DNA of 64,000 bases from Callorhinchus milii (Eukaryota). The translations under genes and the position numbers were made by a program. The notes under the pieces were generated by a model. That model made no database searches and was not told where the DNA came from. It saw only the letters and a list, made by a program, of their open reading frames with translations. The stretch is from NCBI RefSeq assembly GCF_018977255.1, contig NW_024704742.1, positions 32,986,001 through 33,050,000 of the forward strand, in the 5' to 3' direction. Each line of letters starts with the position of its first letter. The first letter of the stretch is position 1. Below, piece by piece: positions 211 to 48,276 of the stretch.

Positions 211-1200
211 CATACAACAACCAATACAGTTTTAGTTGGTTAAAATCCAACAGTGCTCCAATGCACAATTTGTTTCCCCAAGCCTTGGCTTTTCCCAACC
301 TGACTTAAATTGTTCCAGTTTAATAATGCTGCTATAAGAGAAAATGGTCTTAAAAGCTGCATTGAAAGGCAAGTATTAAGACAAACCATCATAACAAGTC
401 GAATTAAAGACCTAGATTAAGTGTAATAAAGCACAATAACTGATATTTATTAAATTCTCATTAGCTTACTTATTCTGGTATGTATGTATGAAAAAATGTC
501 TTTAAATGCAACATCCTTCATGAGACAAAGGGGTAAACATTCAGCAGGTGGTGTTATCACCAATGACAATTACAACATTGATCATGAATGCAGTCAGATG
601 CAGTCAGTAGTTATCCGTGGACTCGAGAAAAGTTCCCTTCAATAACCATTCACTCTGCTTTTTACCACATTTTTGGTCGATGTGATTATTTATTGGTGCT
701 GCTATCACATGTCACATTTTCCCCCTGAACTATTTCCATTCACCTGAAAAAAAGTTTCCCAGCAGTTTGTGCTCTGTTGGGGATGTAACTGTACTCGGAC
801 ACATGACTGTTTCATAAGATAGTTTCATAAAGTTTTGCACATGAGATCACAATTGAAGCATTTCACTAACCTGCAAACAAATTAATGAAGTATTGGAAAT
901 ATGTTTTATCTTCTGCTGGGTTTAACAAGCATTACTGGAGTAACAGAAGACAAATGAACTATGCTGACACAGAACCCCAGGACGATTTCCTGATTCCTGA
1001 GGCGAGTTCTGAAGAGGAAGCCACTTTACAAATCCATTAAACTGGAAAAAAATGGCAAAAGCTGACAGGAAAGAAGTAGATGTGTCACAGCTGGCTGAGT
1101 TTTATTGATCACTCTGACATGTCAAATGACAGTAAAGTGCTCTTGTTTCCAACAATTTGTGAAGTTCTCCTTTCCTTGAACTTTGGAATCCAATGAGAGA

Positions 1201-1832: not shown

Positions 1833-2609
1833 GTTTCTTCAGAGGGGCTTTGCTGAGGCTGCAACCCTTTCCTTCACCTTCCCAGATATGCTTATCTTAT
1901 AGCTGAGTGAAACCATGAAATGGGAAGAAAAACAGAGAGCTCACCCACTCACATATTTAGCATCTAAGTTAGCAAAGCAAATTCTTTAACTGATTAATGT
2001 GTTCAAAACATCCAGTCCATTTTGTACATTCAGCTTGTGGGCCTCATTAATGTTTTGTCATACTATATATGTAATAAACGCCCCATTGCCAACCTCAGAA
2101 ACTGTCAGATAGCAGCACTCCCTCTATCCCGAAGGAGTAACAAACATTTTGGCAGACTGCAGAAAACCGCTTGTGGTCTGCTTGTGGGCTCCAGGCAATA
2201 TTGTGTAAGACTTTGGATCTGAACCCAACCCCTTCCAGCTCCACCTCATTTACCACTCGTTAGCTTACTTATTCTGGTTCCTTTCCAACTTTACTGATAT
2301 TTATCAGGTATTTACCCAAATTATAAATGCTGGAATCTAAAACACGGAGATTTCAAATGGAACTACTTGAGAAAAAATGTCCAAGATACAAATAGGATAT
2401 CTTCCACTCACTGGAAGTGCATTAAACCAACCTGTGTTCTCCAATCCGATCTACTTCCAGACTGGGGATATGGTGGGTGGGAATAATGTACTTCTGATTA
2501 CCAAAAGGAGTCTCCATTTGTAACTCAGAATCCCATTAGAAATCATTGCATTGTGTATTTTTCTATGAATCTTATGTTCTGTCTGACCCGACATCCATCA
2601 GTGTCCACC

Positions 2610-3935
2610 AGAGCAAAATTGTAGTATCTATTCACGAGAAGGGCCACACCAGGCAGACCAAAAACTAACTAGGTATCTCATTAATTTCAGTGACTTCAGT
2701 GACTCCACCACTATGGTGGCAGTTGAGGTAGTCACTGAACATATTTCAGATGCATTGGAGGCCAGGAAGAAACAGACAGTGTGTAGGGTAGGTTGTGTCT
2801 TTGCATGAGATGTTGTAATGCTCAGAGGAAATCTATTTATGTTGTGTTCATTGATTTCCATAAAGTTTTTGACCCAGCACTTCATGAAGACCTCATGACA
2901 AAATTGGAAACCAAGGTAAAACAAGACCAAATTTTGGATTTTATCCAGAATGTGTAGTCCAGCTCCAATATTCATGTTAAGTTTAATGGGGGACTCACCG
3001 AGCAGGGTTGGGGGATGCAGTTCACTGCTGCCAACTTTATTTGATGTCCTCATCAATGATTATTAAATGGCATTGAGTGGGATGGACTTGGTGTATCTGC
3101 TCCAGGCATTTCTGTTAGAATGGTGATGCTTTGTTGCAGATGATACTGTGCTGTTGGTAGACTCACCTAGGGATCTCATCAACTGGGGATTTCATGCGCT
3201 GTACTAATCATCTTGAACACTGGTCCATTCAGTGGCAAATGATGGTGAGCACTCTCAAGTGCAGTATAACAGCTCTGCACAACTTGAGAGGAGACCTTGA
3301 ATGTATTGACTGGAACCTACAAGGGGCATGTGTCCCAATTATTGATTCTTAGGGGGATTGTAGTGGGCACAGACTTTTGTTTGGATACTGTCTTTGAGAC
3401 CCTGAGAAGAGGCAAAAAAACACAACAATGGAATATCAGAACTAAGTTACCCCTTTGTGTGCTCTTGGTAGTCTGGTTCCTGAACCAGGTGGATCCAGAG
3501 TTCTCCAGTCACTGCTAATGACAGACCAGCCAACTGGACTCATCGACAGAACTCAGAGGATCAGACGGGATCAGAGGAATCCTCCCACTCAGCTCCAGTT
3601 AATCCTGTAAGTTTATGCTGTAATGAGTACAGTGCTTTTAGATGGACAAGCAGGAAACTTGCCAAACAGTGCTCTCAGCAGTAAGCTGCAAATGGTTTTA
3701 GTTCACCTTAACTCTTGCTAACCTGTGCCTAATACTCTCCAGAATTAGGTAAGCAGGCTGCATCCCTCCAGGGAGAAAGATGCATTCTCCAGGTACATTC
3801 CATTCCAGACACAAAGAAATTTTCATATGTGGGTGGCATACATATGTGGAACTATCAGTCTGGTTTTAGTACTGTTAAGCATGGTACCTGGTTTAAGCAT
3901 GGAAGTCTACATGTGTCAGACAGTTGCTGATGAAA
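2610..3935 (+). mobile_element. Decayed, internally deleted non-LTR retrotransposon (non-CR1/L2, RTE-group-like RT); longest copy of family X
   Basis: Ordered RT motifs across frameshifts: IVVSIHEKG..KN*LGISLISV (from 2618), QCVG*VVSLHEM, YVVFIDFHKVFD (2838-2873), GCSSLLPTLFDVLIND (3013-3060), FVADDTVLLVDSPRDL (3130-3177), LEHWSIQWQMMVSTLKCSI (from ~3212). These are followed by the ~500-bp 3' segment shared with the other copies. Confidence 0.8.
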
Positions 3936-4716
3936 AAGACCAGCCTATTAAGCAATGTTAAAATTATACGTATGTTATAACAGGTCTGCAAAATAATGGC
4001 TACTGGTCTCACTTCTTTAGTCTTGCTTGCGGGACTAATTGAAACGCAGATCTAGGAAATCAGCTGCTCTGCTTCAGAATAGTACTGCACTGCTGGCATA
4101 GTTGGACTCCCATTATACCAACTTATCTGCACAATAAATGGACTCATGCTGTATAACAAGTCATATTATGACAGAGTCATACTGCATGCAGCAAGTTTAT
4201 TTTATTTTGCAAACCTAACAAATTTGGCCATATTCGATAACAAGATGTATATCAGTCCAGATCAAGAATCTAGACTTTTGAATTTCACCTCGACATCTGA
4301 GACACAAATAATAGTTAAACATTATTCACTCACCTAATAATTGTTTTCAAAAGACCTTTTTTCCTCAGGTACTATTTAAAATATTTTCGAATGGATTGGG
4401 TAATTCATTCAAGAGCCAAAGAAAATGACCATTATTTCCATTTGCTCCTTCCCATACCAGTTTCTGCTATTACTGTCTTTTGCACTATATGCACAGCAGG
4501 GTCACATATGTTCAGTGAGGTCAGCATGTTTCGATGTCATTGTGTGATTGATGGAGTGTGTGAGGAGTCTGCTCAGGTGACATTTAAACTTGAGGGAGAA
4601 ACACTAAAAACAATGATTCCAAGGTAAACAGTGTACTTTTGCATGGTCGCCTCAGAGTATCTGTAAAGGAAAAAGAATCAGGCCTACAGGGCTTTTTTTT
4701 AAAAAAATTGTGCCTC

Positions 4717-5689: not shown

Positions 5690-8212
5690 CCTGAAACTCT
5701 CCTTGCACCACCTCTTCAGATTTCATTGCCCTCCTCTCCTCCCTAAAACCTCACCCTCCACATCGACTTGTCAACCCACAACCGTGGCTACTCCCTCGAC
5801 CTCGTCATCACACATGGCCTTAACATTTCCGAACTGTCAATCATGAACAAGGCCATCTTGGACCACTTCCTCATCTCCCTCTCCTCCTACAATCCCCCTC
5901 CCCTCTTCCAAACCCGCCACCATTTTCTTCTGCCCTTGGAAAAAGCTTCCCCCTGAATCCCTCACAAATGCCCTCTCTTTCTTGGATCTCCTCTCCCTCT
6001 GGTCCTCCACCCGCAGCGATCCTGAATGACCGTATTTCCCACAACCTTCAATTCTCTGACTCCCCTGAAATCCTGGGCAGTTTCCAAACCCGCCCGCTCC
6101 CCCGGTACAACAGTAATCTCTGCTCACTCAAAACACAAACCCGGATGCTCGAGCACAGATGGCAGAAATCCGGCCTCACGATTCACCACCAGCTGTGGCT
6201 CGAGCACCTCCGCACCTACTGCCACTCCCTTTCACAGGCCAAAACTGACTTTTACTCCAAAATCATGCTGGAGGCAAACAACAATCCAAAGACACTGTTT
6301 TTCACTGTCCATCACCTCCTCCGTGTACCCACCTCCCGTCAAGCCCCCTTGATCCTCACGTCTAAACGCCAAGTGCGAAGAGGTCCTAGACTTCTTTGCC
6401 TGAAAAATTGAAACATCTGCTTGGCAGCATCATTCCACACCTCCCCCTCCCCCACCATGTCCCCTTTCACCCCACCCAGACTATCCACACCACCTTCTCC
6501 CTCTGCCACAGCTCCTGCTACTCCCCCCTCCTTACACCTTTGCTCCCATTTCTCCCTCCTCCCTCTCAATCACAATAACCCAGATGAAGTTCACAACTTG
6601 CTATCTTGAACCTCCACACCCAGCTGCTGGTCACTCAACTTCCCCTTCTCTCTCCCCTGCTGGCTGACACGGTCAACCAGTCTCTCTCCTCAGGCTCCGT
6701 TCCACTCCCCCTGAAAACCACTGTCATCACACCCCTCCTCAAAAAACACACCCTTGATCCCTCTAATCTCTCACACTACCATCCCATCCTCAACCTACCC
6801 TTCCTTGCCAAAGTCCTGGAATGCATTGTTGCAGGTCAACCTCGATCACATCTCTCCCTCCATTCCCTCCTCGAGCCCCTGCAGTCTGGTTTTCACTCTG
6901 CCCACAGCACAGACAGCGCTTGTCAAACTCACAAACAACAATCTCTCTATCTGTGACCAGGGCTCCCTCTGCCTCCTCGTCCTTCTGGATCTCTCTGCCG
7001 CGTCTGACACAATCGACCATGCCGTCCTCCTCCATCGGTTCTCCTCCCTCATCTACCTTAGTGGGACCGCACTCACAGGGTTCCAGTCCTACTTAACCAA
7101 CCACCTCCACTTCATCTCAGCAAAGCGTTTCTCCTCCTGCCCCTGCCGGGTCACCTGCAGGGTACCTCAAGGCTCCATCCTTGACCCTCTTCTTTTCCTT
7201 AACTATATGCTCCCTTTGTGCGATGTCATCTGCAGACACGGGGTAAACTTCTACATGAATGCAGATGACACACAAATCTACTTTGTCTCCTCCAGTACGA
7301 ACTCCAGGTCTGCCGATGAGCTAACAGCTTGTCTGGGAGACATCAAAGCCTGGATGAGTGTAAACTTCCTGCAGCTGAATATGCACAAGATGGAAGCCAT
7401 AATCCTTGGCTCCCGTCAACAGCTTCACTCCTAAAGATCTAAACTCCTCAACCTCCCTAGACTCTCCCTCAGACTCACTGAATCTGTGCGCAACCTAGGC
7501 ATCCGGTTCGACCTCCAACTGTCCTTCCTTCCCCACATCCGGTCCCTGACCAGGACCGCCTTCTTCCACCTCCACCACATTGCCTGCCTCTGACCGTACC
7601 TTATCCCAAATGCAGCCGAAACCCTCGTGCATGCATTTGTCACCTCTCGCTTGGATTATTCCAATGCACTCCTTGTCGGTCTCCCCAGCTCCACCATTCA
7701 CAAGATCCAGCTCATTCAAAACTCTACCACTCGCATACTGACCCAGACCAAACTCTGTACCCACACCTCACCAGTTCTGGCCAGGCTCCACTGGCTCCCC
7801 ATCACTGAGCAGATCTACTTCAAGATCGTCACACTCATGTTCAAATCCATTCACTCCCTGGCACCTCCCTACCTCTCCAACCTCCTCACTCCCCAATCCA
7901 CCACCCAGTGCCTCCACTTGACTAGCACCAGCCTCCTGCTTGTCCCTCGCACCCTCTGCCCCACCATTGGAGGTCGTGCTTTCAGCCACTATGCCCCAAA
8001 ACTCTGGTACACTCTCCATCATTCCTTTAGGCTTGGCCCCTCTCTCCCCTCTTTCAAGTATCACTTGAAAACTTTCCTGTTCGACCATGTTTACGCCTAC
8101 ATCCCCACTCCCCCCAGCTCGGAGTCAGGCTCCGCCACTGTTAAGCACTCTGAGTTGCTGCCCTGTGTGGAGGGTGCTATATAAGTGCAAGTTTTTGTGG
8201 ATGTTGTTGTTG
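5690..8212 (+). mobile_element. L2-clade LINE, 5'-truncated and frameshifted (older subfamily)
   Basis: Endonuclease end (THNRGYSLDLVIT...DHFLI), RT motifs (LLDLSAASDTIDH, VPQGSILDPLLF, ADDTQIY) and C-terminus ([15 protein letters not shown]...LHWLPI...[13 protein letters not shown]) spread over several frames. Ends tatataagtgcaag...gttgttgttg. Confidence 0.95.
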
Positions 8213-9089
8213 ACCCTCTGGACCCTCTGGTACTCTGTTCGGACACCAATCTCAGTTTGAACTTTCATGAAACCTACCCATGTATTGCACATTAAACCAG
8301 CCACATTAAACCACATTTATGAGGTCTTTTAAATTTTACAAATGGGGTGGAACATGGGGTGAAAATTGTGACCTTGTTGTGGAGTTTGTTAAACGGTTGG
8401 ACCCAAAGCTTTCAGCAGACATCATGGAGGTTGCAGTTCTCAAAGATTTTGGGTGCGATTCCCAGGACTCCAGCTCAGACACTCAGCTCAGCTCACATTG
8501 AATTACTTGTTACAGTTTCAACCCATTGATTCCAAGTTGCTTGTGGACCTACAGATTTATTATGACCTATCCTTTCCTAAAGAGAAATGGTTGTGTAAAA
8601 TTATTCTACTCACCAAGAACTGTTTCCTTTTAAAACATATTTATGTAAAGATTGGATTTTAAGTCTCACAAAACACTTTTCTCCTTTGTTTAATTATTTG
8701 GATGCTGACTTCATAAGGCTGCCAATTCGTAACCATCTTGTTTATATTCATATTATTTGTAAAATAATAACTATTATGATTTAACAGAAAATTCTAAATA
8801 TATAAATCTTCTGAGACCAACAAAATGATAGACTATGTCACTTCAAATATTTTGGTTAAACTGTTTTTTTCTTAAATTGACTGACAGTCAACTCACATGA
8901 TGCGCAATGTACTATATGCACAATGAGATTTTTTGTTTTAATGAACCAACTCAGCCAATTTTTATTTTACCAAATGACTAATTATCTGCATTGTTTCTTT
9001 GTCCGCAATGAGTCCGGTTCCAATTTATTGGTATAACTAGCTTAATTTAGTGCGTTCTGTATTAAAACTATTTGCTCATCCTCTCCAGC

Positions 9090-9601
9090 TGGTCCTCTGT
9101 GGCACAGTAGGTTTCCTGAACCAGGTAGATCCATAGGTTTCCAAGGCACTGCTACTGACAGCACCGCCAGCCCGGCTCATCAGCAGGACTTGGAAGGGGA
9201 GACCAGTCACTAGGGACAGGGACGCGTTCCACTCAATTCCCGTTAACCCTGCAAGCCAACAGATAGGGTGGTCCTGGCTGGACAAACAGCAGGAAAGCTT
9301 GCCAGACAGTGCCATTATTGGCAAGCCATGCGGTTTTAGCTGGTTAGGCTCCAGTAGCACCCCAATGCACACCATGGATCCCCAAGCCATGGCTCTTGCC
9401 AACTTGCGCCTAATACTTTCCAGTATTAGGTCAGCAGGGTGTGTCCCTCCAGGGAGAGAGTGCGCTTCCATTCCAACAATCTATCTCTGGGATTTCCATG
9501 TGTAGATGGGATGCATGGGATTCTCGGTTTGGTCTGGATACTCTTAACCATGGTGATGGTTTCCTCATGAGTCAGACACCCTCGCTGGCTCCAAAAAAAA
9601 A
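9090..9601 (+). mobile_element. Family X LINE 3' fragment with A-rich end
   Basis: Colinear with ~3450-3935; ends gctggctccaaaaaaaaa. Confidence 0.8.
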
Positions 9602-9679: not shown

Positions 9680-10000
9680 ATAATAATAATAATAATCCTT
9701 GCATTTGATATAGCGCTTTTCACGTCGGGAGGACGTCCCAAAGCGCTTCACAGAACACACTGTAAAGTGAATTGACTGTATATTTGTGGGCGAACGCGGC
9801 AGCCAATTGCGCACAGCAATGTCCCACAAACAGTCGTAGATTGAAAATGACCAATTTATTATTGTTTTTGGTTTTGGAGGGATTATTATTAGGCTCTGTG
9901 TGGAGTAAGGAAACTTGCCCAAGGTTTCGCCCTGACTGGAATTGAACTCAGGTCTCTCACTTGCAAAGCGAGTGCTCTAACCACTGAGCTACAGGACTCC
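9680..10000 (-). mobile_element. Full-length young tRNA-Ala-derived SINE (short variant)
   Basis: Minus strand reads GGAGTCCTGTAGCTCAGTGGTTAGAGC (A box)...TTGCA...GAGTTCAATTCC (B box), a Deu-like body, an L2-like tail and (TTA)n. ATGTA flanks both ends (9675-9679, 10001-10005). Confidence 0.92.
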
Positions 10001-10935: not shown

Positions 10936-11143
10936 TTTTTTCGACCTCAATTTTTTTTGGGGGGGTTCGTTTTGCATTTGTTTATTATTATTTATTTGGC
11001 GGGAGCTCGGCTCGGCTCGGTTCGATCCCGGGGTAGAAACCCGCTCCCGGATGCCTTGAAAGGGGCGCAGGAAGAGCCGGGGGTGGGGGTGGGTGTGGGT
11101 GGGGAGGGGGGGGGGAGAGAGAGGAGGGCTGCAGCTTCCAGTC

Positions 11144-11433
11144 ATGGTGGGGGCACTGGCCGGGTTTTCAGTGGCCAGTCTCTTGACGTTTGGCTACCTG
11201 TCCCGGGACTGGCCACCAGGACCCGGGTCTTCCTCGGGGGGCAGTGAGCCCCCCTCCAAGCCCCACCTGATCTTCATCCTGGCCGACGACCAGGGCTTCC
11301 ACGACGTGGGCTACCACGGGTCCGAAATCCGCACGCCCACCCTCGACAGACTGGCCGCCCAAGGGGTCAAGCTGGAGAACTACTACATCCAACCCATCTG
11401 CTCCCCGTCCAGGAGCCAACTCATCACTGGCCG
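11144..11433 (+). CDS. Arylsulfatase I/J-family gene, coding exon 1 (signal peptide and N-terminal sulfatase domain)
   Basis: ATG at 11144 gives [20 protein letters not shown] (hydrophobic leader), then [58 protein letters not shown]. This includes the metal-binding DD pair and the CxPSR motif (Cys codon 11399-11401). GT donor at 11434, phase 2. Confidence 0.95.
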
Positions 11434-11516
11434 GTAGAGTATCGATCAATAGTCGCTACTGGTATTCTTCCTTCCTGGCTCCTCGCCTCCTCCTCCTCCT
11501 CTCCTCCTCCTCATCC

Positions 11517-12759: not shown

Positions 12760-13262
12760 AGTTTGGGGAGTGTAAGAAGGGTTTCTTTAGTGCTGAGTTT
12801 GTTTCAAGATCGCACGGCTGGCAGTGGAAGATTGGAATTGAGTCAATCTTCTGTGGTAGTCTTGGTTATCCAATACCTGAGGCAAGTCCACAGTACCCCA
12901 AGGAACAGCTGGTGATGGTCCAGTCAGCCTCGGTCATTAGGAGGATTAGTCTCGTTGCTGGGATTTTTCACGCTCGGCTCCTGATAATCTTGCATACCAA
13001 AGCTCTAGAGGTGAACCTAGTTGGATAAATAACAGGAACCCTTGCAATAATTGGCTACAGTTTTATCAGGTTAAACTCCACCACTACTGTAATATACACA
13101 TACACACCAAGCCTTGGCTTTTGCTAACATGCGCTAAACTCTCTAGGTTTAGGTGAACAGGGTACATCCCTCTATAGAGAGATTACGCACTCAAAACCGG
13201 ACAAATGGAAACTATATGAATGTTGGATTCTCAGGAGCTTGGTTTGGTGATGGGTTACAGCA
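12760..13262 (+). mobile_element. Family X LINE 3' fragment (diverged)
   Basis: Shares ccaagccttggcttttgc.aac, taggtgaacagggt...ccctc and the upstream block also seen at 14465-14700. Confidence 0.65.
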
Positions 13263-14464
13263 CCAGCCAAATACTAGGGTGAGCAAAATACAATAAGTAA
13301 ATCAAAATTAAGGGAGGCCTAAGTTGTATTTTACACAAATGAAGGAGTCTGAGTTTAGATACCAGCTGTCAGATCAGAATTGAAGTTCTAAAGAACACCA
13401 TGCTTCTGCTCTTAGGTTTGGGTGATTTTTGTTTCACCACAATGTGGCATACCATTTGATGAATATTAGTTACCAGGAGACGATCAGTAAAAATCACATT
13501 ACATTTTACTCCAGAGCCTATGTGAATGATCTCAGAAGAGAAAGTGTAGATTCACGTCTTCTAGATGCCTCAAAGCGCTTCACAGAATATACTGTAAAGT
13601 AAGTTGACTGTATATTTTGTGCGCAAAACAATCCCCATGGTTTCATTTCTGGGAGTAGCACACTTGTGCTCTAGTGTACGGCGATACTGAGTTACCTTCA
13701 TATTGGTAATCAGATTTCACAGTCATTCAAACCTAGCATTATATTCCAATGCAGCATTGCATTGAATCTGTTATATGGTCCACATATACCACCTGTAAGC
13801 ACCATCCGCATTCATTGTCTCCAGCAATTTTGCTTTCTTTTTTCTTTGTCTTGCAGCCCTCCAGTGATGTGATCTATCTCCTGGTTTTAAATTAGCGCTG
13901 GTGCACTGATGTGAAAGTTGTACATTTTGGAATGGAAATAACAAGAGTGGGAGTCTAACCAGTTTGATAAAGTAGCTATCCAATTCCACCAACAATGCCT
14001 GATTCCTGAGCTGCCCACCTACATGAAAGGATGCTTTGCTAGCTGTGTACAGTCTCCAATAATCACCTCTGTGTACCATATACAGCAAACATAGATGCGA
14101 CCTTTATGATCCTGCAAAGTAACATTTGTTGCTCACTGCTGTTTTCATTCTGTGCAGATACTGAATTTGGATACCAGCTGTCAGAACAGAATTGAAGTTC
14201 TAAAGAACACCATGCTTGTGCTCTTAGGTTTGGGTGATAGCCAAATATGGACATTTTTGAACTACAATAGTGTCTGGTTACATTTGACTAATCTGTGGTT
14301 CCCTGCCTTTACATTTTGTCTGTTCGTTCATGCAAAAATGTTACTTAAATGGGCTTTATTGTGTAATGCTTAGCAACTCGTCCAGTTTTTAAGTGCACAG
14401 TGCACAACATCTGGCATCAACTGTAATTTTTTTCTGGGGGGTGGGTGGGGGAGGGCGAAGGAGG

Positions 14465-15665
14465 TAAGCTGGTTCTCCTTGGAGCTGAGTTGGATCCAAG
14501 GTGACGTGATTGGTAAAGGAATGTTGGAATCAAGTCAACCCTCTGTGATGGACTCCATAGTCTGGTTCATGAGCCAGACAGGTCCATAATACTCCAGGGC
14601 ACGTCTCACGCCAAGATTAGCCAGCCTGCTCATTGGCAGAACTTGAAGTGGCAGATCATTGGAGGGGTAGATCAATCACTGAGAGTAGGGAGCAAATAAT
14701 CCCGTAAAAAAAAAAAAAAATTTGGTCACTGAAACCAAGTTTGTGGGATACTACTCTACACAATTGACTGCCACGTTTCATCCACAAAATATACAGTCAA
14801 TTCACTTTACAGGATGTCCTGTGAAGCGCGTTGAGACGTCTCAAAGACGTGATAAAAGGCTATAAGAACATAAAAACATAAGAATTAGGAGCAGGAGTAG
14901 GCCATTCGGCCCCTCGAGCCTGCCCCGCCATTTGATAAGATCATGGCTGATCTTCAGACCTAACTCTAATTACCTGCCCTATCCCCATATCCCCTAATCC
15001 CTCTATTTTTTAAAAATCTATCAGTCTCAGCCTTGAAGATGTTCAAGGACTGAGCATCTACAGCCTTCTGGGGTAGTGAATTCTGTAAATTCACTACCCT
15101 CTGAGTGAAGAAATGTTTCCTCAACTCTGTTCTAAAAGGCTGACTCTTAATTTTAAGACTGTGACCCCTAGTTATAGATTCTCCTACCAGGGGAAACAGA
15201 CCCTCAGTGTCTGCTTTATTCAGCCCTTTAAGAATCTTATATGTTTCAATAAGATCTCTCCTAATTCTTCTGTACTCTAGAGAATATAGCCCTAGTTTAT
15301 TCAGCCTATCCTCAGAGGTCAGTCCCCTCATCCCAGGAACTAACCGAGTGAATCTAAGCTGCACCCCATCTAGGGCAAGTATGTCCTTTTTTAAATAAGG
15401 AGACCAAAACTGGACACAATACTCTTATGTGCGCTCTCACCAAGGCCCTATACAGTTGCAGCAAGATTTCCCTACTCTTGTACTCTAAACTCTATATCAA
15501 ATACAAGGATTATTATTATTATTCCCACTCAGCTCCTGTTAACTTTGCAACCCAAAGTCCTAACGGTTAGCATGGTTCCAGCTGGACACACACGAGAAGC
15601 GTGCCAGACACTGCTTTGAATGGCAAACTATGGGGTTGTAACTGATTAAACTCCAGCAATATCCC
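14465..15665 (+). mobile_element. Family X fragment split by a SINE, which is itself split by a CR1
   Basis: X runs 14465-14704 and resumes at ~15521 (attcccactcagctcctgttaac). SINE 3' part lies at 14721-14864 and 15492-15521. Confidence 0.7.
14864..15491 (-). mobile_element. CR1-type LINE 3' fragment
   Basis: Minus ORF 14966-15364 (RFTRLVPGMRGLTSEDRLNKLGLYSLEYRRIRRDLIETYKIL...TRGHSLK...FFTQRVVN) is a CR1 ORF2 C-terminus. Tail reads taagaacataa on +. Confidence 0.92.
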
Positions 15666-16459: not shown

Positions 16460-16905
16460 GATCAGATACCTAAGCCAGGCAGGTGCACAGTACTCCAGGA
16501 CGTTATTCATTGATCTGCCTGCCTAGCTCATCAATGGACTTGGAGGGGTAGACATATCACTGGAGGGGGGACAGAAACGGGATTCTTCCTACTCAACTCT
16601 CACTAATCCTTGCAAGCCAATGCCGCATTGAATAGGGTGGTTCTAAGTGCACAAACGGAAGATTATCAGTGCTCTGTACTGATAAATAGCTTGGTTTTAA
16701 TTGGTTTCATTCCCACTGTTCGTAAATGTACATTTTGGAGACCATGAAGACGATAATCTGCGATAATTCTCCGGCATAAATAAAGGGAGTGGGGTCTTTT
16801 CCCTCCTGGAAAGAGATTATGCATTCCAGAACAGCCAGAAAATTTGCTTCTGAGGGTTCTCAGTAGCTGAAACTGAAGGCTGTTAAGCACTGGGCTTGGT
16901 TTCTG
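16460..16905 (+). mobile_element. Family X LINE 3' fragment (diverged)
   Basis: ggacttggaggggtagac...tgcaagccaatgcc...tagggtggttc matches 9187-9280. Confidence 0.65.
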
Positions 16906-19900
16906 CCTGTGTCTTTATATGAACTCTCCTTGTGATCCTGGTAGCCTTAGGTGTGTGTGGGGTGGGGGGGGGAGAGAAGATGTCACAGGTCATGTAATCT
17001 TTTTTAACGTGATTGCAACATGTGGACAGCAATTTTATTTAATGCATAAATTAAATAAAAATTGAACTCTTAATTTTAACTCAACTCAAATTCAGCTTTT
17101 ATTTCACAATGCCCAGCTTTGTTCCCAGCTAAACCATTAGTGATTAGTAGTGATCATGGGGCTTGATTTATATTGAAGTATATTGATACTGAGTTGTAAC
17201 CAGAGTTACAAGAGCAACTCCTGACAGTAACCAAGTCACACCAATCTGCAGAAGTTGTCGTAAACAGAAATAAAGCGGGGTTTAGTGATGAAAACATTGA
17301 CAGTCACTGTGCTATGTCTACTTTTTTAAAGGTACGGGTACACACTGATGGTACATTTCATGCCATTCTTCAAGTGTCAGCCTGGACAGTGGAGGGTTGG
17401 ATGACTGTAGAGGATGACATCCAAATTCAATCCTGTCCTTAATCAACATCGATACATGTGCCCTTTTCAATAGAAATCCCTGGAAAACAATGAGGAGTGG
17501 AAATCGTACTTGATTTTCTTTCTCCTAATTCGGTGGCCCTGAGGCCAGTGAAAGCCCCCACTTTCGCCTGGTTAAGATTAGCTAATGCAGAACAGGACCA
17601 AAGATTAAACTTGCGACCTCCTTGGCCTGTGGCTTAGCTACTTTTAATCATAGCGAAACAAACATTCCATTGGCAAAACTCGGATTGGTTAGAAAAGGTG
17701 GCCAGAATGTTTATTTAAAAACATGCGCTAAAATATAATGAAAATAGTAGGATGGAATTCATTCATATACATGTTAGTATTAAACAATAATTTTACTTAT
17801 TTATTGTTATACAAGGTAACAATACATTAAGGCTTATTGTAAGTGCTCAGTTTGTGTGTGGCTAACGCAATCACTAGCTGTAAACATAAAACTGGTCCAA
17901 TTGTCTAAACAGTGAATACTTGTTGCAGATTTAAAATAATAACATTCCTTGCATTTACTATTGTGGGATGTCCTCCTGACGTGAAAGGCACTATACAAAG
18001 GTAATTGTTGTTGTTGTGCCTTATCAGTTCGACAAGACATCTCAAGGTTCTTCATAGGATATATTGTAAAAGTGGCATAATTTGGTCACTCAATCCACAA
18101 CTGTTTGTGAGACACTGCTGTGTGCAATTGGCTGCTCCCCATAAAATAGAGTCAATCCACTTCACAATATATTCTGTGAAATACTTTGAGACGTCTCAAT
18201 GACATGATAAGGCCCTATGTCAAATGCAAGGATTATTATTATTTTGGGGACAACCGTGGCAGCCAATTTGCACACACAGTGTCCCACATACAGCTATGGA
18301 GTGAATGACCAATTTTATTTGGAGGATTGTTGGCTGGGAAACTGGGAGAAACTCTTCATTTCAAATACATTATACTCCAGTGGTTTCTGATAAAAAAAAG
18401 TACACATATTTTCTACAATCGTGGCTTTACACGTTCATGGGCCTGCGTTAGATATGATTAGTGAAGACTGATTACATCTTCCTGTCTGGCAGACATGTTC
18501 AAATTTTTTAACCAAAATCTTAAATCTAGTTTTCCTTTGTCACATAACTTTCCTTAACATGTTTTAAGATGTACTTAGGTTTTTTTTTCATACAATTTAT
18601 TTTAGTTTACCCTATTCTCTTTGAGACCCATAATCAGTAACATATTTTGAACCACTGCCAATCAAATTCCACATGTATTACAGCACCATCAGTTAAACAG
18701 GAAAGTATAGAATGAGGTTTTAGCTTTCAAATGTGCAGAAATATCAGGATATCGGGTGGGCTGAACAAGACTTAAGTCGATTATTTCTGTGTGGATTGCA
18801 TCACACTGCATTCTTTGCAATGTGTTAAATGTTCTGTTGCAGAATGGGAACGATTCCAAGTAATTTATGTTTTGAATGTGTATCTAATACATGTGGTCAG
18901 CAACTGGAGGTCTTTAAAGGGTGTTCTTTTCCCAGCAGAGATCATGTGGTAATGTAACATCTTATAGCTAGCTGTCTGAACTGTGTTGCCTGTCAGGACT
19001 CCTCCCAGAATGGTATCAGAAATACTGTTTCTTAAATGCTTGCATGAAGGAGTCATGATTGACTCTCTTCAAGTAGAAGCCTGATTCAAACGGTCACGGT
19101 AATCTGAGCGTGGAAAAAAAACTTTTAGAACGTAGCAGGATGACGGCTTGGTTAAATTAACAACAACAACTTGCATTTATACAGTACCCTTCACATGGGG
19201 GAGCATCACGGAGTGCTTGTTAACAAGTTAACAAGGTATTTCAGATTGTGTTAGAAAGACGAATGAAAAAAATAGCAGTCAGTGGATGTGGCTGCATCAT
19301 GTAACCATTTTGATATGAAAATTGTATCTCAAATTTACTCTATATTGCATACAAGTAAATTTTGTACTGAAGATTCCCTCAACTGCAATATCATAAGATG
19401 AGTGAACTAAGCCTTGGCGCTCCAGAAAGGACCTAGCACAGATTTTGTAGAATTCTGCAAGTCATTCCCTCACAGAGAGAACTCTTTTTAACCACTTTCT
19501 GCTTTCTCTTGTCAAGTCAGTTCTCAATCTAGTTATCTAATTTGCCATTAATTCCACGAAGCTTCATTTCCTTCAAAAGCCTAATGTGTGGTAATCTTCT
19601 GCAAACTCAATTATGTTACACATTAATTTTGTTGCCGCCTAAAAGAATTCCATTGAATTCATGAGGCATATTATCTTATATTTCAGTGAACATGCTGGAA
19701 CAACAAAAATGTTGTACTACAAACTACAGCGTTTTATATTCTATCACTTTCTGTCTGTCCAAGATGTTACTCTACATGAAAAGCTCTATATAAATGTTAG
19801 TTGTTGTTTTGTGGTGAACAATAATTTATCATCTACATAAAAACATGACAAGGCTTTAATCAGATTTTCATAATGTCCTTCCTTCTTTACACAATGATCT

Positions 19901-20857
19901 ATTTATAAAAACAGGGCTGTCAGGAGAATGTATTCATTTGCAAAGTAAAGCTGCCAAAAAGCATGTAAGATGTCAATTATAATAATGCATTTATATAGTA
20001 CCTTTCTCATTAAAAAAAGTATCAAATTATTTATTACAAATAATATAGATTAGAAATGTTGTTGTTATACTGTGTAGGCAAACATGACAGCTAATTTGCA
20101 GTATCCCACATATAGCAATGAGATGAGCAGCAAATCAATGTGAATTGGGAGGTAAATGTGGATTAAGAGTGGAATACTATACAAACCAGGATAACCAATG
20201 AAACAGCAGTAACAGGGTAACTCCTTTACCTGAATCACAACGCAGAAGAAACAAAATATTAATAACACAATCAAAAAATGGGATAATGATCTGGAAATAA
20301 ACAATAAAATGGTACATATTAAGAAAAATACAGTATTGCTTTCTTTTTTGAGGGTATCTTTACTGCTTCTCTTCCCGACGTCTTCTCACCACCCCACCCC
20401 ACCCACCCCCATCCCCACACCCCCACAGCAATATTCAGAGAAGACTTGTTTTGTGAATTAATCTACACATAAGAAGCTACCAGATCAGCAATGGATTCAA
20501 TTTAAGGGTTGGCTTAGCAACACAATTTCAAAGTTTGTTATGCTAACCATATGCGATGTGTACAAAAGGAATTACAAATGCCTTTGTTTATGCAACTCAC
20601 AACAAATAAATGATTACAGATGATTTTGGAATTTTGCAATTCGATCATTGTTTTTTAGTTGCCTATCGTTATGCATTTGCAGATTGTTATTTCAACCAAC
20701 AATGGTGCATATTCAACCTATATACTAAGCCCTTTTATTGTGGTATGATTTGTGCTGATTTATTTTTATTTTGGAACTTGTTGGGAGATTTTTCAATTAA
20801 ATGGGAAGGAAATCTGTCTATGTTTGTCCTCTGATCAATTGATGTCAGATTGCTTTC

Positions 20858-21010
20858 TGGAATTAGGTAAGCAGGAATCATCCATCCAGGGAGATAACTG
20901 CACAATTCCATAGGTACATTTCCATGCATAGGTGGCATGCACATTTGGAATCTCAATCTGGTTTGATAGTCTAAAGCAAAATGTGTATCAGCTACCTTGC
21001 TGACCAAAAT
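20858..21010 (+). mobile_element. Family X LINE extreme 3' fragment
   Basis: gaattaggtaagcagg...tccagggaga...tttccatgcataggtggcatgcac...ccttgctgaccaaaa. Confidence 0.65.
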
Positions 21011-23044
21011 AAATAATAATAGGAACATTGTCGTCCTTTTTTTAACAAGTTATTCCCTTCTGTGGACGATGAAAATTATTAAAGATTTGTCATTTTCAGG
21101 CAGCGTTGTGGTGAGGGGTGGGGGTGTGGGGGAAATGATCCACAACTGATGATTCATTGGCAATTGTGCAACAGGTCAAAGAAGGATATTCGGATCTCTT
21201 GGCTGTTTAAGATTTATCTTGGCACCGAATAATTTGATTTGATCACTGGAATTCATTGATAGGAATTTATGGAACCTGAAAAGACCATTGGAGTCCATCT
21301 GGTTTTTAAAATGAAATAAACCTGCACTATTCTATCTCTCATTTGGCACAATTGATCTATTTGCCAAATACCTTCCTAATTTTCTCATGAATATACTGAC
21401 ACAACCAATCTCCCCAAGTAGTCCTGCCACATATTCACTGCTCTTTCTGTAAAGACCTTTCATCTGAACTGTATGTTCATCTTCCACTCTATCTGGACAA
21501 TACACTAAGAGTGGATGAAATAATTGTGGTTATTTGATCCAGAAAGAATATCAAGTTCGCTCCAGTGAAATAATTGAATAATATATATAATAATAATCCT
21601 TACATTTCACACAGGGAGGACGTCCCAAAGCGCTTCACAGGACATACTGTAAAGTGCAACAAATGTGTGTTTTGTGAGAGAAGGTGGCAGCTAGTTTTGG
21701 ACAGCAGTGTTCCTACCAACAGCCATGAAGTGAATGACCAATTTTTATTTGGGGGATCGTTGGCAAGGACAACAGGAGAAACTTGCTACTATTTTATTAA
21801 AAGACATTGCTAAAATATCATATCACTCACTGATGGGTCATAGATCCAGAATTGGCAATATTTTGGACTTCTTTCATCCTCCTGAAATTTCAGAAGACAG
21901 AAAATGGCCTCAGGATTTTCTCACTGTATTCTTATTGAATTGCGAAACACTGATATCAAAGGTTGCCAGAAATCAATGACATCAATATGTGTTTGTTGCA
22001 AAATTGCACTTTGCTGCTCTGAAAAGATTGAAAAACTAATGGGCCCAAATTCTTAGGGGCCATACAGTCTGAATCTGGAAGCCTTGAAGGAATTCATCAT
22101 GTAATACCACATATTTTCCCCTATATTATTTCAGAGCTGTTATAACTTTGTTTTAATGCTTTTAGGGGATAAAGCAAGGGCCTCATAGAGGTCCCCACTG
22201 AAAAGGCAGGAACTATTACGAGCTAAATGAAACAATTCCCTTTGCCAAACTTTTGAATTTCAAGTGTTTGACAGTTTTGTTAAATTGCAACTGAATTTGG
22301 TGCATGCAAAGAGCTAAAAATGCTACAGGCCCAGATATCAGCTTTCATAACACCATGCATTTACTTTTGAAAATGACATGAAAGTACATGCAGGCCAAAT
22401 TGCGGGTGCTTTGACTGAAAAATTGTCAGTCAATTGGTGCTTTGTTTATTTAGTTCTCTCTGTCTTATGCACATCAAGAACAGAAATGTACCACTGTATG
22501 ACTTGAAACCAGTGTCCAAAGGTTCTGACCTTTGTGTTGAAAGTGCTTTCTCAAAGCTTTCCTCAATCAAACAAATCACAAGGAATGAGATATGGATAAA
22601 GAAAGCCCTTTGTCTATTTGATCTCAAACCTACCACCTTTCCATCATAGCATCTTAAATTAACCCAGTGTCTTGACCTCAACTGCCTTTCATGAAAATCC
22701 TTTCCAGCCATTGTTACCTATGTATAAAGGAATGCTTCATGATATTTATTCTGATCTTGCTCTTCATAATTTGTTATCCATCACTGTGTGATATTGGAGC
22801 CAGAAACTGACTCCGAACTATTGATGTGGAATGGAGGGAGCTCTATCTGAGTGGTTGCCCTGGTAATAGAATCATTCCTATGGAAAGTACTCATTCCTAG
22901 CTTCCCACTCAGTCTTCAGATTTTTTTAAACTGTGCCTTTCATGGGTTTGTAGTGGAGAAACCATTTATAAATTAAGCGGCAGGGACTTGGAATGGAATC
23001 CCTTATGTAATTCATTAGAGTTTGTACATTTCTCTCCCATCCAG

Positions 23045-23372
23045 CTATATTTGACATAGCATTTTTCATATTGTGTAGATGTCTCAAAGGGCTTCACAGG
23101 ATGTACTGTAAATTATAATAACTGCATTTTGTAAGCAGATGCAGCAGTCAATTTGCACACAGCAATGTCCCACAATCAGTCATGAAGTGAATCATTTTTT
23201 TATTTGTGGGTTTCTTCACAAGGACAATGAAACTCCCTTCTATTGTTTGAATAATGCCAGGGGATCTTTAATGTCTATCTGAACAGACAGATGGGACCTC
23301 AGATTAATGCCTCATCTGAAGGATTGTACCTCCAACGTTGCAGCACATACTCAGCACTACACTGGAGTGTCC
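23045..23372 (-). mobile_element. Older Deu-domain SINE just upstream of the exon 2 acceptor
   Basis: ggatctttaatgtctatctgaacagacagatgggacctc...ctcatctgaagga is the reverse complement of the Deu core. Confidence 0.7.
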
Positions 23373-23437
23373 GCCTATATATATGATAAATATGTTTCAC
23401 AATGTAACTTATTGAAATATTTTCTTTTGATTTGTAG

Positions 23438-24809
23438 GTACCAGATACATACAGGACTTCAGCACTCCATTATAAGGGCTGGACAGCCTAATTGTATACC
23501 CTTGGATAATGTAACTCTTCCTCAAAAGCTTCAAGAGGCTGGCTACTCAACACACATGGTTGGAAAATGGCACCTAGGGTTTTATAAAAAGGAATGCCTG
23601 CCAACGCGAAAAGGATTTGATACATTTTTTGGGTCACTTACGGGGAGTGGGGACTATTATACCCATGACGTCTGTGATGGTCCCAATGCCTGTGGATATG
23701 ATCTGCACAAGGGCGAAAACGTGGCTTGGGAGTACAGGGCTCACTCCTACTCCACCTTCCTGTATACCCAAAAAGTAGAGGAAATCCTAGCATCTCACAA
23801 GCCTAAGGAGCCAATATTTTTATACATTGCTTTCCAAGCAGTGCACACACCTCTTCAAGTGCCTAAAAACTACCTGGGTCAATACAAGTCAATCCAGAAT
23901 GTGGGCCGGAGAAGATATGCTGCTATGGTAACATGCTTGGACGAAGCAGTGAACAACGTTACACTGGCATTGAAGAAATATGGTTACTATGAGAACAGTA
24001 TAATAATCTACTCTTCGGACAATGGAGGGCAACCATTAGCCGGGGGCAGTAACTGGCCACTTCGCGGGCGCAAAGGAACATATTGGGAAGGAGGAATTCG
24101 TGGAATTGGCTTTGTCCACAGTCCTCTACTCAAAAACAAGGGGGCCGTGAGTCGCGGATTGATGCACATCACTGACTGGTATCCCACTTTGGTGACACTA
24201 GCAGAGGGAGAACTTGAGGAGAATTTGGGTCTTGATGGGTATGACATATGGGAGGCAATCAGTGAAGGGAAACCTTCCCCGCGGACTGATATTCTGCACA
24301 ACATTGACCCGCTTTACACACGTGTCAAAAGCAACTCACCTCATGACGGATTCGGAATCTGGGACACCACAATTCAAGCAGCAATCCGAGTTGGAGACTG
24401 GAAATTATTGACCGGTAACCCGGGTTTCAGTGACTGGATCCCACCTCAAACCTTCCCAAATTTTGCTGGGAACTGGTGGAATCTTGAAAGGGTATTTTGG
24501 GGTAAAAGCAAAACAGTCTGGCTATTTAATATCACAGCAGATCCTTATGAGCGGGTTGACCTTTCTCAGCAGTACCCTGAGGTTGTTAAGAGGTTGTGCT
24601 TGAGGCTGGCTTACTACAACGTGACTGCAATTCCCGTCAAGTACCCTCCAAAAGATCCGAAGAGCAATCCTAAACTCAACGGAGGTGCTTGGGTACCATG
24701 GGATAGTGACGAAGAGGAAGAGACTAACTTAATTAATAGCTTCCCTGAGAAAAGACCCTGGAATACTTGCAACATGCAACTGCGTTTCAAAAAACCTGCT
24801 TGGGTATAG
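23438..24809 (+). CDS. Arylsulfatase I/J-family gene, coding exon 2 (rest of the sulfatase domain; spliced protein 553 aa)
   Basis: Pyrimidine tract and AG (ttttcttttgatttgtag) end at 23437. CG+G rebuilds Arg, then [12 protein letters not shown]...[13 protein letters not shown]...SSDNGG...KGTYWEGG...[12 protein letters not shown] to TAG at 24807-24809. A two-exon layout split at TGR/YQIH is characteristic of ARSI and ARSJ. Confidence 0.97.
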
Positions 24810-32882: not shown

Positions 32883-35800
32883 ATTTAATTATAATCAATT
32901 GAAGTTAAATTGAAGTTAAAACTTAAGACCAATGGAATATTTTGTGATTAACACTTTCACAATGAAAACTTATGTTAAATAAGTCTTGCACCTTTCACAT
33001 CAAGAGGATATCTCAAAGCAGTTGATAGGATATGCTGTAAAGTGTGGTGATCATGAATTCTGTAGGCAAACTCCGCAACCAATTTGCACATCACAATGTC
33101 CTACAAACAGCCATGTAAATTGTGCTGTATCTGCAGGAAAGCACAGCGAATTTATGCTTGACAAGGTGCAAAAACACAGTTAAATGAATGATCAAAAGGA
33201 ACTAAGCAACAATAATATAATAATAATCCTTGCATTTGATAAACACGTTATCACATTGCCAAGATGTCTCAAAGCACTTCACAGGATTTACTGTAAAGTG
33301 TATTTTGTAAGTCAAGTAAATATGATAGAAACTAAAGTGTTTTGTATTAAAGTATAGGCTTTGTTTCATTACTGTCGCTTTTATTTGGTTCCAAATGGCA
33401 TTCTGTAAAGAAATATTCATAAACAGCAACTATTCAGCTATATTTGAGGCAATACAGCGCTTTGCTGGGTGGCACCAAAGAAGCAGAGGAGAACAGAGAA
33501 TTGAGACTCAATTTCGACCATAGCTAAATTCCCATTTATAACTGTATTACTGGGAGAGAGGGAGGGAAAAAATGTCATTCGAGGGTATCTGTTAGATGCC
33601 TCCTGGTAGTCAGATAAAGAATTACAATAGCAAAATCCTGACAGATTTTGAGGCTTTCAGCCTGTACAAGGAGATAATGGATGGCAAGAGAGGATAATGG
33701 GATTTCATAATCCTCCTTTGATAAGAAGTCAAAATCAATTAAGAAATGCTGAGACTTTTAGCAGATTTTTGGTTTATTCAAAGAATTAAGCATTTAAATG
33801 TAAATAAAACCTGATGAATGGCCAAAAATTCATTGAGTGGCAGTTCCGAACTGATTAAAACATTCTATCAGATTAGAAAAACATAATGAACAATATGGTG
33901 AAAAATGTGCCACCTGATGTGATGTTGTAACTATCACATCACGTGTCAATTTTTTCAATCCAACAAAATACAGATCAATGGTGAAGCCAACCTTTTGAGA
34001 ACAATAACTTTATTTTCAGAAACAGAACTGAATTAGCTAAAGCTTTTCATCTTCTGAGACAGAAATGTCAAATCCCACAATAGCCTAGTGGATAAAGACA
34101 ACACCCACTGCAATGTTAGACTAAAATGATTGTTCACATTCAAACTCTATGCTGCGTTGCTAGAGTTTTCATGACCTTAACCTTAGTTCCAAGTGTTGCT
34201 ATAAGTGGCTTTACCCAGTGCAAGATCATGCGTTGTTCAGGAGAATCTTAACTTGAAAGTTGAGTGTCCTGATTTTATTTAAAGTATTTATGATTTGATT
34301 CAAGTATGAACTAACATTTTCTGGGCTGGGATGCCGCTATTTTTTAAATCTGGCCAATCCACAAAATAGCTATTAGACTCTGAGATGCCATCCAGCATGA
34401 AGGGCTCTATAGAAATGCAAGTTGTTGTTGTTGATATTACAACCAAAAGGCAATGTTACCATTAACCTTTGAAATCCTCTGAGTCGCCAGGTTGCATAAC
34501 CTATCTTTCCCAACAGTACATCGAGCGGAGTGTTAGCAGTTGGGAAGATAATGAATTTACAAAGCGGAATGATTGCCTCAGTTTGTAATCAGCCTGTACA
34601 CCCTTTCGTTGAATATCCTGCAGTGCAAGAAAGGTATGAAAGCAACTAGGCCATAACAACACAACTGATCTGAGGTCTGGTAACTTGTTATGAAAAAATT
34701 ATAAAAAGAGAAAGTGTAGATTAAGGTACAAATATGACAACAGATTAAATTGAAGTAACACAAATCAAATTAGATGAGGATTGAGGATTTTACCTAAAAT
34801 GTTAAAATTAACATAACCCTGCACTAACGATTTACAGGTTTAATTCATGTATTAATTTGAGAAAAATACTGCTATTAGTACACAGTTCTTACAGATACCC
34901 ATAAAAGGAGAATGTATGCGGATGTGGAGATCCCAGGAATCAAGATAAGGAGAAAAGGCTTGTATTCAGCTGTGGCCTAGATGTCAAACACTGGTGGTTG
35001 CAAACCTTTCAAGCTCATTATAATGATGATCATCATAATAATAATCCTTGCATTTGATACAGCACTTCATTATGCCAGGAGTTTACTTCCCCCAGAAGAT
35101 CAGAATCCTGACTGTGACTTACAATTTTTTTTTGTTTACTCAGAACTGCAGGTTTGGGGTTACTGGAGGTGGTTCAACATCATCTGTCCTCACCTGGATT
35201 GAATACCGTTGGACATGATAAGCTTGTTTTGTCTGACATTCTCAAATTCCTAAAGGTTTTATCTGGAAACACCCAGTCTACTTTCTTAAACCTTTCCTAT
35301 GTAACTCTCTGAAGCATTTTAAGTTTTGCAGTCATAGCGTTTTGTTTTTGTTCAGCCAGGTGTCAGAGACATGCAGAAACCCCTCACTGAACTATGAAAG
35401 CCCCTCTGAGTCATCTTCTCTCAAGACTGAAGAACTCTGTCTTACACTACTGAGAGTTTCACATTTTGTCACAGGAATCTTTAATAACCACAGGCAGCAG
35501 GCGCCTGAGATCTTGGTTTAATGTCTCATCTGAAGGACAGCAACGCAGTGCATCCCCAGCACGACATTGCAGTCCTTCAGATGAGGCTATGAGCTCAAAG
35601 TTCTATCACATGATCTTTTGAGTCATAAGATCACAAGGTTGGTCTGGATGAAAAGGTCTTTGGTCTATCTGATCTCATTTGTCCAGAACATCCACCATAC
35701 CCTCGCTGCATCAAGCTGCTTTTTAAATGAGTCTAGTGGCTTGGCCTCTACCACCTTTGCTGCAACATGTTCCAGTCGTTGATTACACTCTTCACAAAGA

Positions 35801-47600: not shown

Positions 47601-48276
47601 TTAGAATACATTAGAATATACAGCACAGAAACAGGCCATTCGGCCCAACTAGTCTACGCCAGTGTTTATGCTCCACTTGAGTCTCCTCCTGCCCTTCCTC
47701 AACTAAGCCTTCAAGCATAACCTTCTATTCCTTTCTCCCTCATGTACCTATCTAGCTTTCCCTTAAATACATCTATGCTATTTGCCTCAACAACTCCTGG
47801 TGGTAGCATGTTCCACATTCCCATTACTCTCTGTGTAAAAAAAATTCTTCTAACTTCCCTATTTGATCTATTTGTGACTATTTTATATGGATTTGGTCTC
47901 CCCCACAAGTGGAAACATCTTCCCTATGTCTATCCTATCAAAACCTTTCATCATTTTAAAGACCTTTATCAGGTAACCCCTTACCCTCCTGTTTTCAAGA
48001 GAAACAAATCCAAGTATGTTCAGCCTTTCCTGATAGGTATAACCTCTCAGTTCTGGGATCATTCTTGTGAATCTCCTTTGCACCCTCTCCAGTGCCTTTA
48101 CATCCCTTCTATAATGTGGGGACCAGAACTGCACACAGTATTCTAAGTGTGGTCTAACCACGGTTCTATAGAGGTTTACCTTAACTTCCCTGCTTTTCAT
48201 TTCTATCCCTCTAGGAATGAATCCCAATGCCTGGTTTGCCTTTTTATGACCTTATTAATCTGGGTTGCTACTTCTA
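47601..48276 (-). mobile_element. CR1-type LINE 3' fragment
   Basis: LYRTVVRPHLEYCVQFWSPHYRRDVKALERVQRRFTRMIP and FFTQRVMGMWNMLP...FKGKLDRYM on the minus strand. Confidence 0.92.

Follow-up and report, generated by a model that had tools for sequence, protein, structure and literature searches.

In Batrachochytrium salamandrivorans, the accessible text of PMC9926174 describes LINEs that combine a reverse transcriptase (RT) with an apurinic endonuclease, some of which are labelled LINE/RTE-X. Since LINE/RTE-X elements are thus reported from B. salamandrivorans, RTEX traces from humans, and RTEX elements with non-autonomous partners from Ectocarpus, the kind of element considered here is already known. 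In fungi, Deceiver and Inkcap have been named as non-LTR clades outside Tad, L1 and CRE (accessible parts of PMC4427930 and PMC3411680). With regard to template recognition, R2 is described as needing 3′ sequences for both protein binding and priming (PMC3414825, accessible part). In the literature covered, which lay largely outside subscription journals and Repbase Reports, neither the lineage described below in cartilaginous fish nor a tRNA-arm-like module at the 3′ end of a LINE was found, and the accessible parts of PMC7245038, PMC4350176, PMC3747384, PMC3411680, PMC4427930 and PMC8955403 describe neither the lineage in sharks nor the module.

Here, we have analysed an element at positions 2609-3937 (+ strand) of a window, that is, of the whole 64-kb stretch of Callorhinchus milii DNA under study. 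It is likely that this segment is one dead copy, truncated at its 5′ end and shortened by internal deletions, from an old RTEX-related family able to recognise its own 3′ RNA. Intact relatives carry a single ORF (AP-endonuclease, RT and CCHC knuckle) followed by poly-A, and the named ones are non-animal. No host function is evident for the studied copy. With this reading, an abundant repeat that is missed by both Pfam and ORF searches would gain an identity.

A decayed RT in a vertebrate setting

The window looks vertebrate. One of its genes encodes a sulfatase (Pfam Sulfatase, E 2.6e-41) and is interrupted by a long intron; presumably an ARSI/ARSJ-like arylsulfatase gene, it lies at 11060-11440 and 23283-24809 (+ strand), with exon 1 around 11.2-11.4 kb and a large exon 2, and the element is located about 7 kb upstream of it. 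Other repeats include a fairly intact L2-type element at 5700-8200 (+ strand; RT at 6.7-7.4 kb), which served as control, CR1-like 3′ ends at 14966-15424 and 47883-48251 (− strand), identified by a CR1-type motif, and an abundant tRNA-headed SINE at 9680-10000 (− strand; tRNA match at 9927-9998), which recurs in about 30 other places, including a near-identical copy (96%) at 52892-53200.

A real RT remnant is present at 2609-3349 (+ strand), the decayed RT core of ORF2, which corresponds to profile columns 637-897. In a frameshift-aware alignment, made with a purpose-built aligner whose gap costs were chosen by hand, a profile built from 73 intact relatives gave the remnant 118.3 bits; with the same profile, 20 shuffles gave a mean of 18.0 and a maximum of 21.8, the reverse complement 18.6, and the window's own L2 RT 76.6. 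All RT motifs quoted in a first-pass annotation of this DNA are present, in the order given there, across three + frames. Because the remnant has accumulated 3 stops and 7 frameshifts over 234 matched profile columns, in addition to small deletions, it escaped both the ORF listing, as that annotation had pointed out, and Pfam, which returned no RT match on five pieces of it. A word-index protein search with the decayed RT retained none of 19 candidates and a PDB search gave no match under E 0.18, while three phmmer matches were rejected, one being a fourfold-repeated RT fragment and two repeat-driven noise. Since one 2074-nt contig of sequencing run X4 spans 1900-3740 with 6 differences, and four samples of one study contain 0.90-0.99 of the stretch's words, the stretch 2609-3937 is not an assembly artefact; no RNA sample was among those listed as containing these words.

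Motif spacing, which had been described as shortened, is so only mildly: between the LGISLI motif and the LG that follows the RT, the window has approximately 226 codons compared with summed medians of 239 in relatives (medians from the 17 of 65 relatives that the motif patterns could parse), i.e., the RT is about 5% short. Three intervals are short by approximately 6, 3 and 7 codons and two are longer than in relatives, and overall the RT is barely compacted. Upstream of 2609, neither a significant match to lineage proteins nor a 5′ end of the element was found, and the AP-endonuclease that precedes the RT in intact relatives is absent; the studied copy would be truncated at the 5′ side of the RT. 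A low-copy repeat directly upstream of the RT (2422-2595; depth 17-38), which has no match to lineage proteins, may be a separate element or an eroded 5′ part.

Lineage placement and origin of the RT

Relatives were collected by scanning metagenome contigs with a degenerate RT pattern, partly shaped by known motifs, which matches the window once and none of 100 shuffles. The scan gave four loci, two of which encode ORFs of 1471 and 1227 aa with Exo_endo_phos and RVT_1 domains; the other two (L003 and L004) had no RT ORF and were dropped. With these two ORFs, 71 full-length relatives were found together with 830 shorter ones, of which 120 were listed. As the lineage entered the analysis via a pattern that fits the window, there is a selection bias, which was partly controlled by leaving the pattern stretch out. 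These relatives are single-ORF endonuclease-RT-CCHC LINEs, the intact ones carrying RVT_1 and Exo_endo_phos, with a CxxC..H..C motif in 67 of 73 intact relatives and a post-RT YGxELW motif that we take to be of RTE-group type.

Among the 120 listed of the 830 matches, 30 are named and most are unnamed. The names comprise Smittium, Synchytrium, Sparassis, Amphiamblys, Galdieria, Laminaria, Pylaiella, Blastocystis, Adiantum and Taxus, that is, fungi, a microsporidian relative, red and brown algae, Blastocystis, a fern and a conifer (yew), and further relatives were found in Batrachochytrium (including B. salamandrivorans) and Cyanidioschyzon. No animal occurs among the 30 named of the 120 listed matches or among the further named relatives. 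Deceiver or Inkcap could be an existing name for this lineage. RT identity to one query is approximately 45-52% across plants, algae and fungi, and the best identity of the window RT to any relative is 35-36%. Two RT-motif scans of viral contigs found 0 and 0 loci, one plasmid record matched weakly (22.7%), and one locus without RT (L087) was rejected as a chance match. Many prokaryote genome assemblies proved to contain whole eukaryotic LINE contigs as contamination (166 matches), and the 80 of these that were listed (L005-L084) provided outgroups, whose labels "animal-type RTEX" and "RTE" rest on C-terminal motifs assumed to be diagnostic.

Profile scores of the window RT were highest for the fungal/algal/plant lineage (101.7), compared with 67.6 for animal-type RTEX, 69.3 for a sister group and 47.7 for RTE. 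Size-matched profile subsamples gave 76-104 for the lineage vs 54-72 for the others, and with the pattern stretch left out the lineage still scored 69.7 vs 43.8, 49.5 and 27.8 for animal-type RTEX, sister group and RTE, respectively. In a 243-row FastTree (rows below 220 aa dropped), the window RT fell in the fungal/algal/plant clade; in a 56-row IQ-TREE of hand-chosen rows it was nested in the lineage (100/95), and it remained so when the read-through was guided by a rival profile (97/93); an LG+C20 tree of 38 rows also placed it in the lineage (SH-aLRT 98). Fixed-backbone placement over 107 branches gave a summed RELL of 0.999 inside the lineage and rejected all 30 animal-type RTEX and 11 RTE branches, each of which was 44 lnL or more worse with a p-AU no higher than 0.002, the best of the 30 animal-type RTEX branches being 44.5 lnL worse with p-AU 0.001. 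Free-topology AU tests, however, rejected neither a grouping with animal-type RTEX (35 lnL worse, p 0.168) nor one with RTE (p 0.185), nor a position outside the lineage (p 0.51), and the window RT is a long branch for which 22 placements inside the lineage were not rejected. All trees were built without L1/Tx1, BovB and Repbase-curated RTEX reference rows; the nearest solved structure is human L1 ORF2p (E 1e-78).

Judged from profiles and trees, the window RT appears to belong inside a fungal/algal/plant RTEX-related lineage, the RTEX label itself being based on motifs. The earlier view that the element resembles LINEs of fungi and protists is supported by profiles and trees over RTE-like and animal-type RTEX-like readings, neither of which is rejected by the free-topology AU tests. 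The exclusion of CR1/L2 holds as well, as neither the PQGS/YADD signature nor a grouping with the window's L2 was found. It would still be conceivable that the element is an ordinary vertebrate RTEX (L4/L5-like) or RTE already present in repeat libraries, whose fungal look results from decay combined with sparse animal sampling. RTEX traces are known in vertebrates (L4, L5 and ALINE; PMC5753468, accessible part), the free-topology tests leave room for such a grouping, and the relatives considered are 120 listed of 830 matches, mostly unnamed. We nevertheless regard this as very unlikely, given that profile scores, trees and fixed-backbone placement oppose it, that the 3′ module described below occurs in none of 29 animal-type RTEX tails, and that, by hand reading, other loci in the sequencing runs have V-P-H-E and G-x-x-G where the studied copy has drifted and are closer to the lineage consensus.

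Apart from the identity of the element, its origin has to be considered. Horizontal transfer of the lineage from a fungal or protist donor into ancestors of the host is quite possible, even if we lean slightly away from it. The lack of animals among the 30 named of the 120 listed matches is in line with transfer, as are approximately 50 RTEX-like contaminant loci, many of them from invertebrate-symbiont assemblies, that fall outside the lineage, and an RT identity across plants, algae and fungi that is high for such old splits. On the other hand, the tree resolves no donor and the window RT has no close counterpart among the relatives, the tally of named relatives was made without animal genomes and many close relatives are unnamed, and a lineage that spans three eukaryotic supergroups may be ancestral. 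Its distribution could also be explained by vertical inheritance since an early eukaryote, the lineage having been lost, or too thinly sampled, in other animals. A vertebrate member makes retrotransposon transfer from fungi or protists to vertebrates testable with existing genomes.

The 3′ RNA module

The 3′ part of the element (3427-3937, + strand), a very high-copy repeat, likely comprises the last ORF2 codons, the 3′ UTR and an A5 tail. As proposed previously, the element ends here: the A5 lies at 3933-3937 and the other window copies stop there in A-rich tails. The tails of six lineage loci (L001, L005, L006, L007, L009 and L012) share ordered motifs with this repeat, and sequence comparison indicates that a 3′ module is common to the window repeat and non-animal relatives. 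The module consists of a D-arm-like hairpin, a short hairpin, a variable part, a UUUUA linker and a T-arm-like hairpin, and is located approximately 240-400 nt before the tail, overlapping the end of ORF2. It is conserved as nucleotides, with the overlapping ORF2 end read in different frames, one or the other of two peptide patterns being seen in 40 of 65 relatives. In L001 (at a contig end, − strand) and L011, the poly-A is directly followed by another piece of a like element, which suggests head-to-tail insertion or assembly of tandem copies.

The D-arm-like hairpin of the studied copy (3617-3633, + strand) has a 4-bp stem, GCTG/CAGT, and a 9-nt loop; its stem letters differ from those of other copies with pairing kept. 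Across the alignment its loop is purine-rich, with GG in most rows, 85% of stem cells are paired and six two-sided changes occur, a result equalled in 6 of 500 shuffles. The T-arm-like hairpin, which follows the UUUUA and has a 5-bp stem and a 7-nt loop, is paired in 82% of cells with seven two-sided changes (0 of 500 shuffles). RNAalifold predicted both hairpins as well, and where stems differ between window copies, pairing is preserved. Because the segments were picked by eye and the shuffles ignore relatedness, cross-prediction is the stronger test. A model built from four non-window rows ranked window copies 1, 2, 3 and 5 of 10 matches in 64 kb, with a rough E-value of 3.7e-4 for the best, a 3′ fragment at 220-313 (+ strand) that has an intact T-arm-like hairpin (GTTGG/CCAAC); conversely, a model from six window copies ranked family sites 1, 2, 3 and 10 of 11 matches in 95 kb (best E 0.0064, equally rough). 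A T-arm descriptor, written after both sets had been seen, matched 4 of the 9 tails from the lineage, none of 42 others and two window sites, both in the repeat, a similar descriptor giving 0.045 matches per shuffled window. In 4 of the 9 lineage tails the module was detected by neither descriptor.

Several other approaches found no signal. Local folding was no better than in shuffles (z -0.67, -1.59 and +0.22), a profile covering the entire 3′ repeat of the window recovered no locus of the lineage, alignments of this repeat with L001 and L002 at the DNA level lacked significance (scores as high were reached by 19 and 147 of 200 shuffles, respectively), one model (R1) recovered only its training rows, and Rfam had no match at the studied element.

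The module resembles tRNA and viral tRNA-like structures in its order (D-arm-like hairpin, short hairpin, variable part, T-arm-like hairpin) and in its T-loop-like positions (U54 in 9, A58 in 9 and U60 in 10 of 10 loci), but differs in having no acceptor stem and C56 in 0 of 10. ARAGORN called no tRNA gene at ten module loci and Rfam gave a weak tRNA-Sec match on L006 (E 1.2); these results and the missing acceptor stem speak against a true tRNA cloverleaf. A second resemblance concerns the Drosophila R2 3′ UTR element (RF00524), to which L012 (4494-4599, the tail of an endonuclease-type LINE) aligns over the UUUUA linker and T-arm-like hairpin with 25.7 bits (E 0.16 for all Rfam, 0.0027 for its own genome). 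However, this score is below the gathering score of 38, only 1 of 5 relatives matches, and no match was found in the L006 tail or the window copies; a link between the module and the R2 3′ element is therefore only hinted at by sequence.

By analogy, we infer that the module may be a cis signal, which the ORF2 protein would bind so as to select its own RNA as template. It would thus be a compact candidate for the feature by which a LINE protein singles out its own RNA, a matter of relevance to retrotransposon-based gene writing.

Deletions, copies and comparison with known elements

From the ADD motif to the 3′ RNA module there are 484 nt in the studied copy and 1291-1539 nt in 6 of 6 intact relatives measured. 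From this difference, 0.8-1.05 kb after the RT are missing, including the CCHC knuckle, so the earlier remark that much of the post-RT region is gone was correct. Positions 3350-3426 (+ strand) are the probable start of the post-RT region, alignable to relatives without a score gain over shuffles, and end at an inferred deletion junction near 3426/3427, where homology with a window copy at 14.5 kb stops abruptly. This copy (14515-14676, + strand) starts at the equivalent of 3427 and has other sequence upstream, with an extension score of 0 upstream of 3427 vs 73 downstream. A second deletion, of approximately 43 nt, follows the TTTTA linker (3696-3704, + strand) near 3703 and removed the T-arm-like hairpin, which is intact in other window copies; it is absent from those copies and from hundreds of run contigs, with loose ends before 3712 in 452-520 contigs per run. 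No target-site duplication was found around this old copy, the best candidate being 8 nt with 1 mismatch.

The post-RT DNA is linked to the RT by adjacency, the A tail and the RNA module. A reading with two neighbouring but unrelated insertions, one providing the RT fragment and the other the 3′ repeat, could point to the lack of any significant protein match to the lineage, or of a CCHC knuckle match, after 3349 (the last ORF2 motif in 3427-3937 is a by-eye match that is not significant alone, 48 of 300 shuffles being equally high) and to an approximately tenfold jump in depth near 3466. We consider it extremely unlikely, since the RT and the 3′ repeat independently indicate the same lineage and lie on the same strand in the expected order with an A tail at the end.

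In three sequencing runs, 7,770-8,924 contigs each were at least 80% identical to the element, almost all of them on 3466-3900. Summed contig depth, a rough guide rather than a copy number, is 100-254 on the RT core and approximately 1e5 near 3727-3813 (a single contig contributes 5-11), climbing toward the 3′ end; from it, approximately 10-25 other loci at least 80% identical over 2857-3117 may be roughly estimated. In run X5, nearly every difference is a C>T or G>A change, the pattern of bisulfite-treated DNA, and its contigs were excluded from arguments on copies. A 3′-repeat profile built from 8 of 11 window pieces found ten pieces in the 64-kb window besides the studied one, with staggered 5′ ends. 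In addition to the fragments at 220-313 and 14515-14676, they include 5′-truncated 3′ copies at 9106-9600 (+ strand; T-arm-like hairpin GCTGG/CCAGT and A tail) and 49472-49878 (+ strand; A-rich tail), and further pieces at 5-220, 12939-13288, 15525-15643, 16535-16913 and 20847-21015 (+ strand) and at 35340-35388 (− strand). Ten of the 11 pieces are on the + strand, the strand of the sulfatase gene, and four lie in its intron; two are adjacent and may not be independent. The CpG o/e of 0.08 in the element, together with an identity of 57-82% for most copy pairs, indicates that the element is old, and the staggered 5′ ends and the rise of depth toward the 3′ end are the pattern expected from 5′ truncation.

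A LINE ORF2 protein nicks DNA and reverse-transcribes from the 3′ end, which leaves many short and few long copies. The family would accordingly have spread by target-primed reverse transcription, giving many 5′-truncated 3′ ends and few copies that reach the RT; the studied copy alone would have lost the thumb-to-knuckle region and the T-arm-like hairpin and would have decayed neutrally since. The first-pass annotation had instead suggested a non-autonomous deletion derivative. In such a scenario, an amplified, internally deleted subfamily comparable to SIDEs would be mobilised in trans, with the 0.9-kb deletion inherited from a master copy. Loci elsewhere that are at least 80% identical both before and after the junction (depth 22-73 over 3292-3378, 76-146 over 3379-3465) and the retained 3′ cis region would fit, and precedents are described in the accessible parts of PMC3414825, for R2, and of PMC12477816, where the most common family in Ectocarpus is a non-autonomous RTEX partner of 600 bp. 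Yet the only window copy at the junction differs upstream, the 5′ end of the element was not seen and the RT is barely compacted, so amplification of a derivative appears quite unlikely to us. The best-supported joints and loose ends listed from the runs include nothing at the 3426/3427 junction either way. Both deletions look private to the studied copy, in that neither the 3427 junction nor the 43-nt loss is shared, in a thin sample of only a few copies; this agrees with one of the outcomes that the first-pass annotation had named as counting against its own proposal.

A more far-reaching proposal, which taken as a whole is rather unlikely, would be that a fungal, algal or protist LINE lineage jumped into cartilaginous-fish ancestors and left thousands of 3′ ends there, its RT selecting the template via a tRNA-arm mimic that has been kept across kingdoms and is possibly related to the R2 3′ element. 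If true, the tRNA-arm mimic would be an old and portable RNA signal for target-primed reverse transcription.

By RT motifs and a CCHC tail, the window element and animal RTEX presumably belong to the same broad RTE/RTEX group. They share a vertebrate host with human L4, L5 and ALINE (PMC5753468, accessible part), but the animal-type RTEX-like loci, which stand in for L4 and L5 in this comparison, form other clades and have no 3′ module. The LINEs of B. salamandrivorans are closer in that their RT proteins share the clade of the window RT, a protein match not tied to a named family; the window copy differs from them in being vertebrate, dead and without endonuclease or knuckle, and no 3′ RNA fold is described for them in the accessible text of PMC9926174. 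Ectocarpus RTEX elements, in contrast to the window element, have (C)n tails and their best matches among animal RTEX (PMC12477816, accessible part). Unlike R2 SIDEs, the window copy keeps no 5′ head and the sole informative window copy does not share its breakpoint; like R2 SIDEs and RTEX-N1_Ec32 (accessible parts of PMC3414825 and PMC12477816), it is a non-autonomous sequence that has kept the 3′ end of a LINE.
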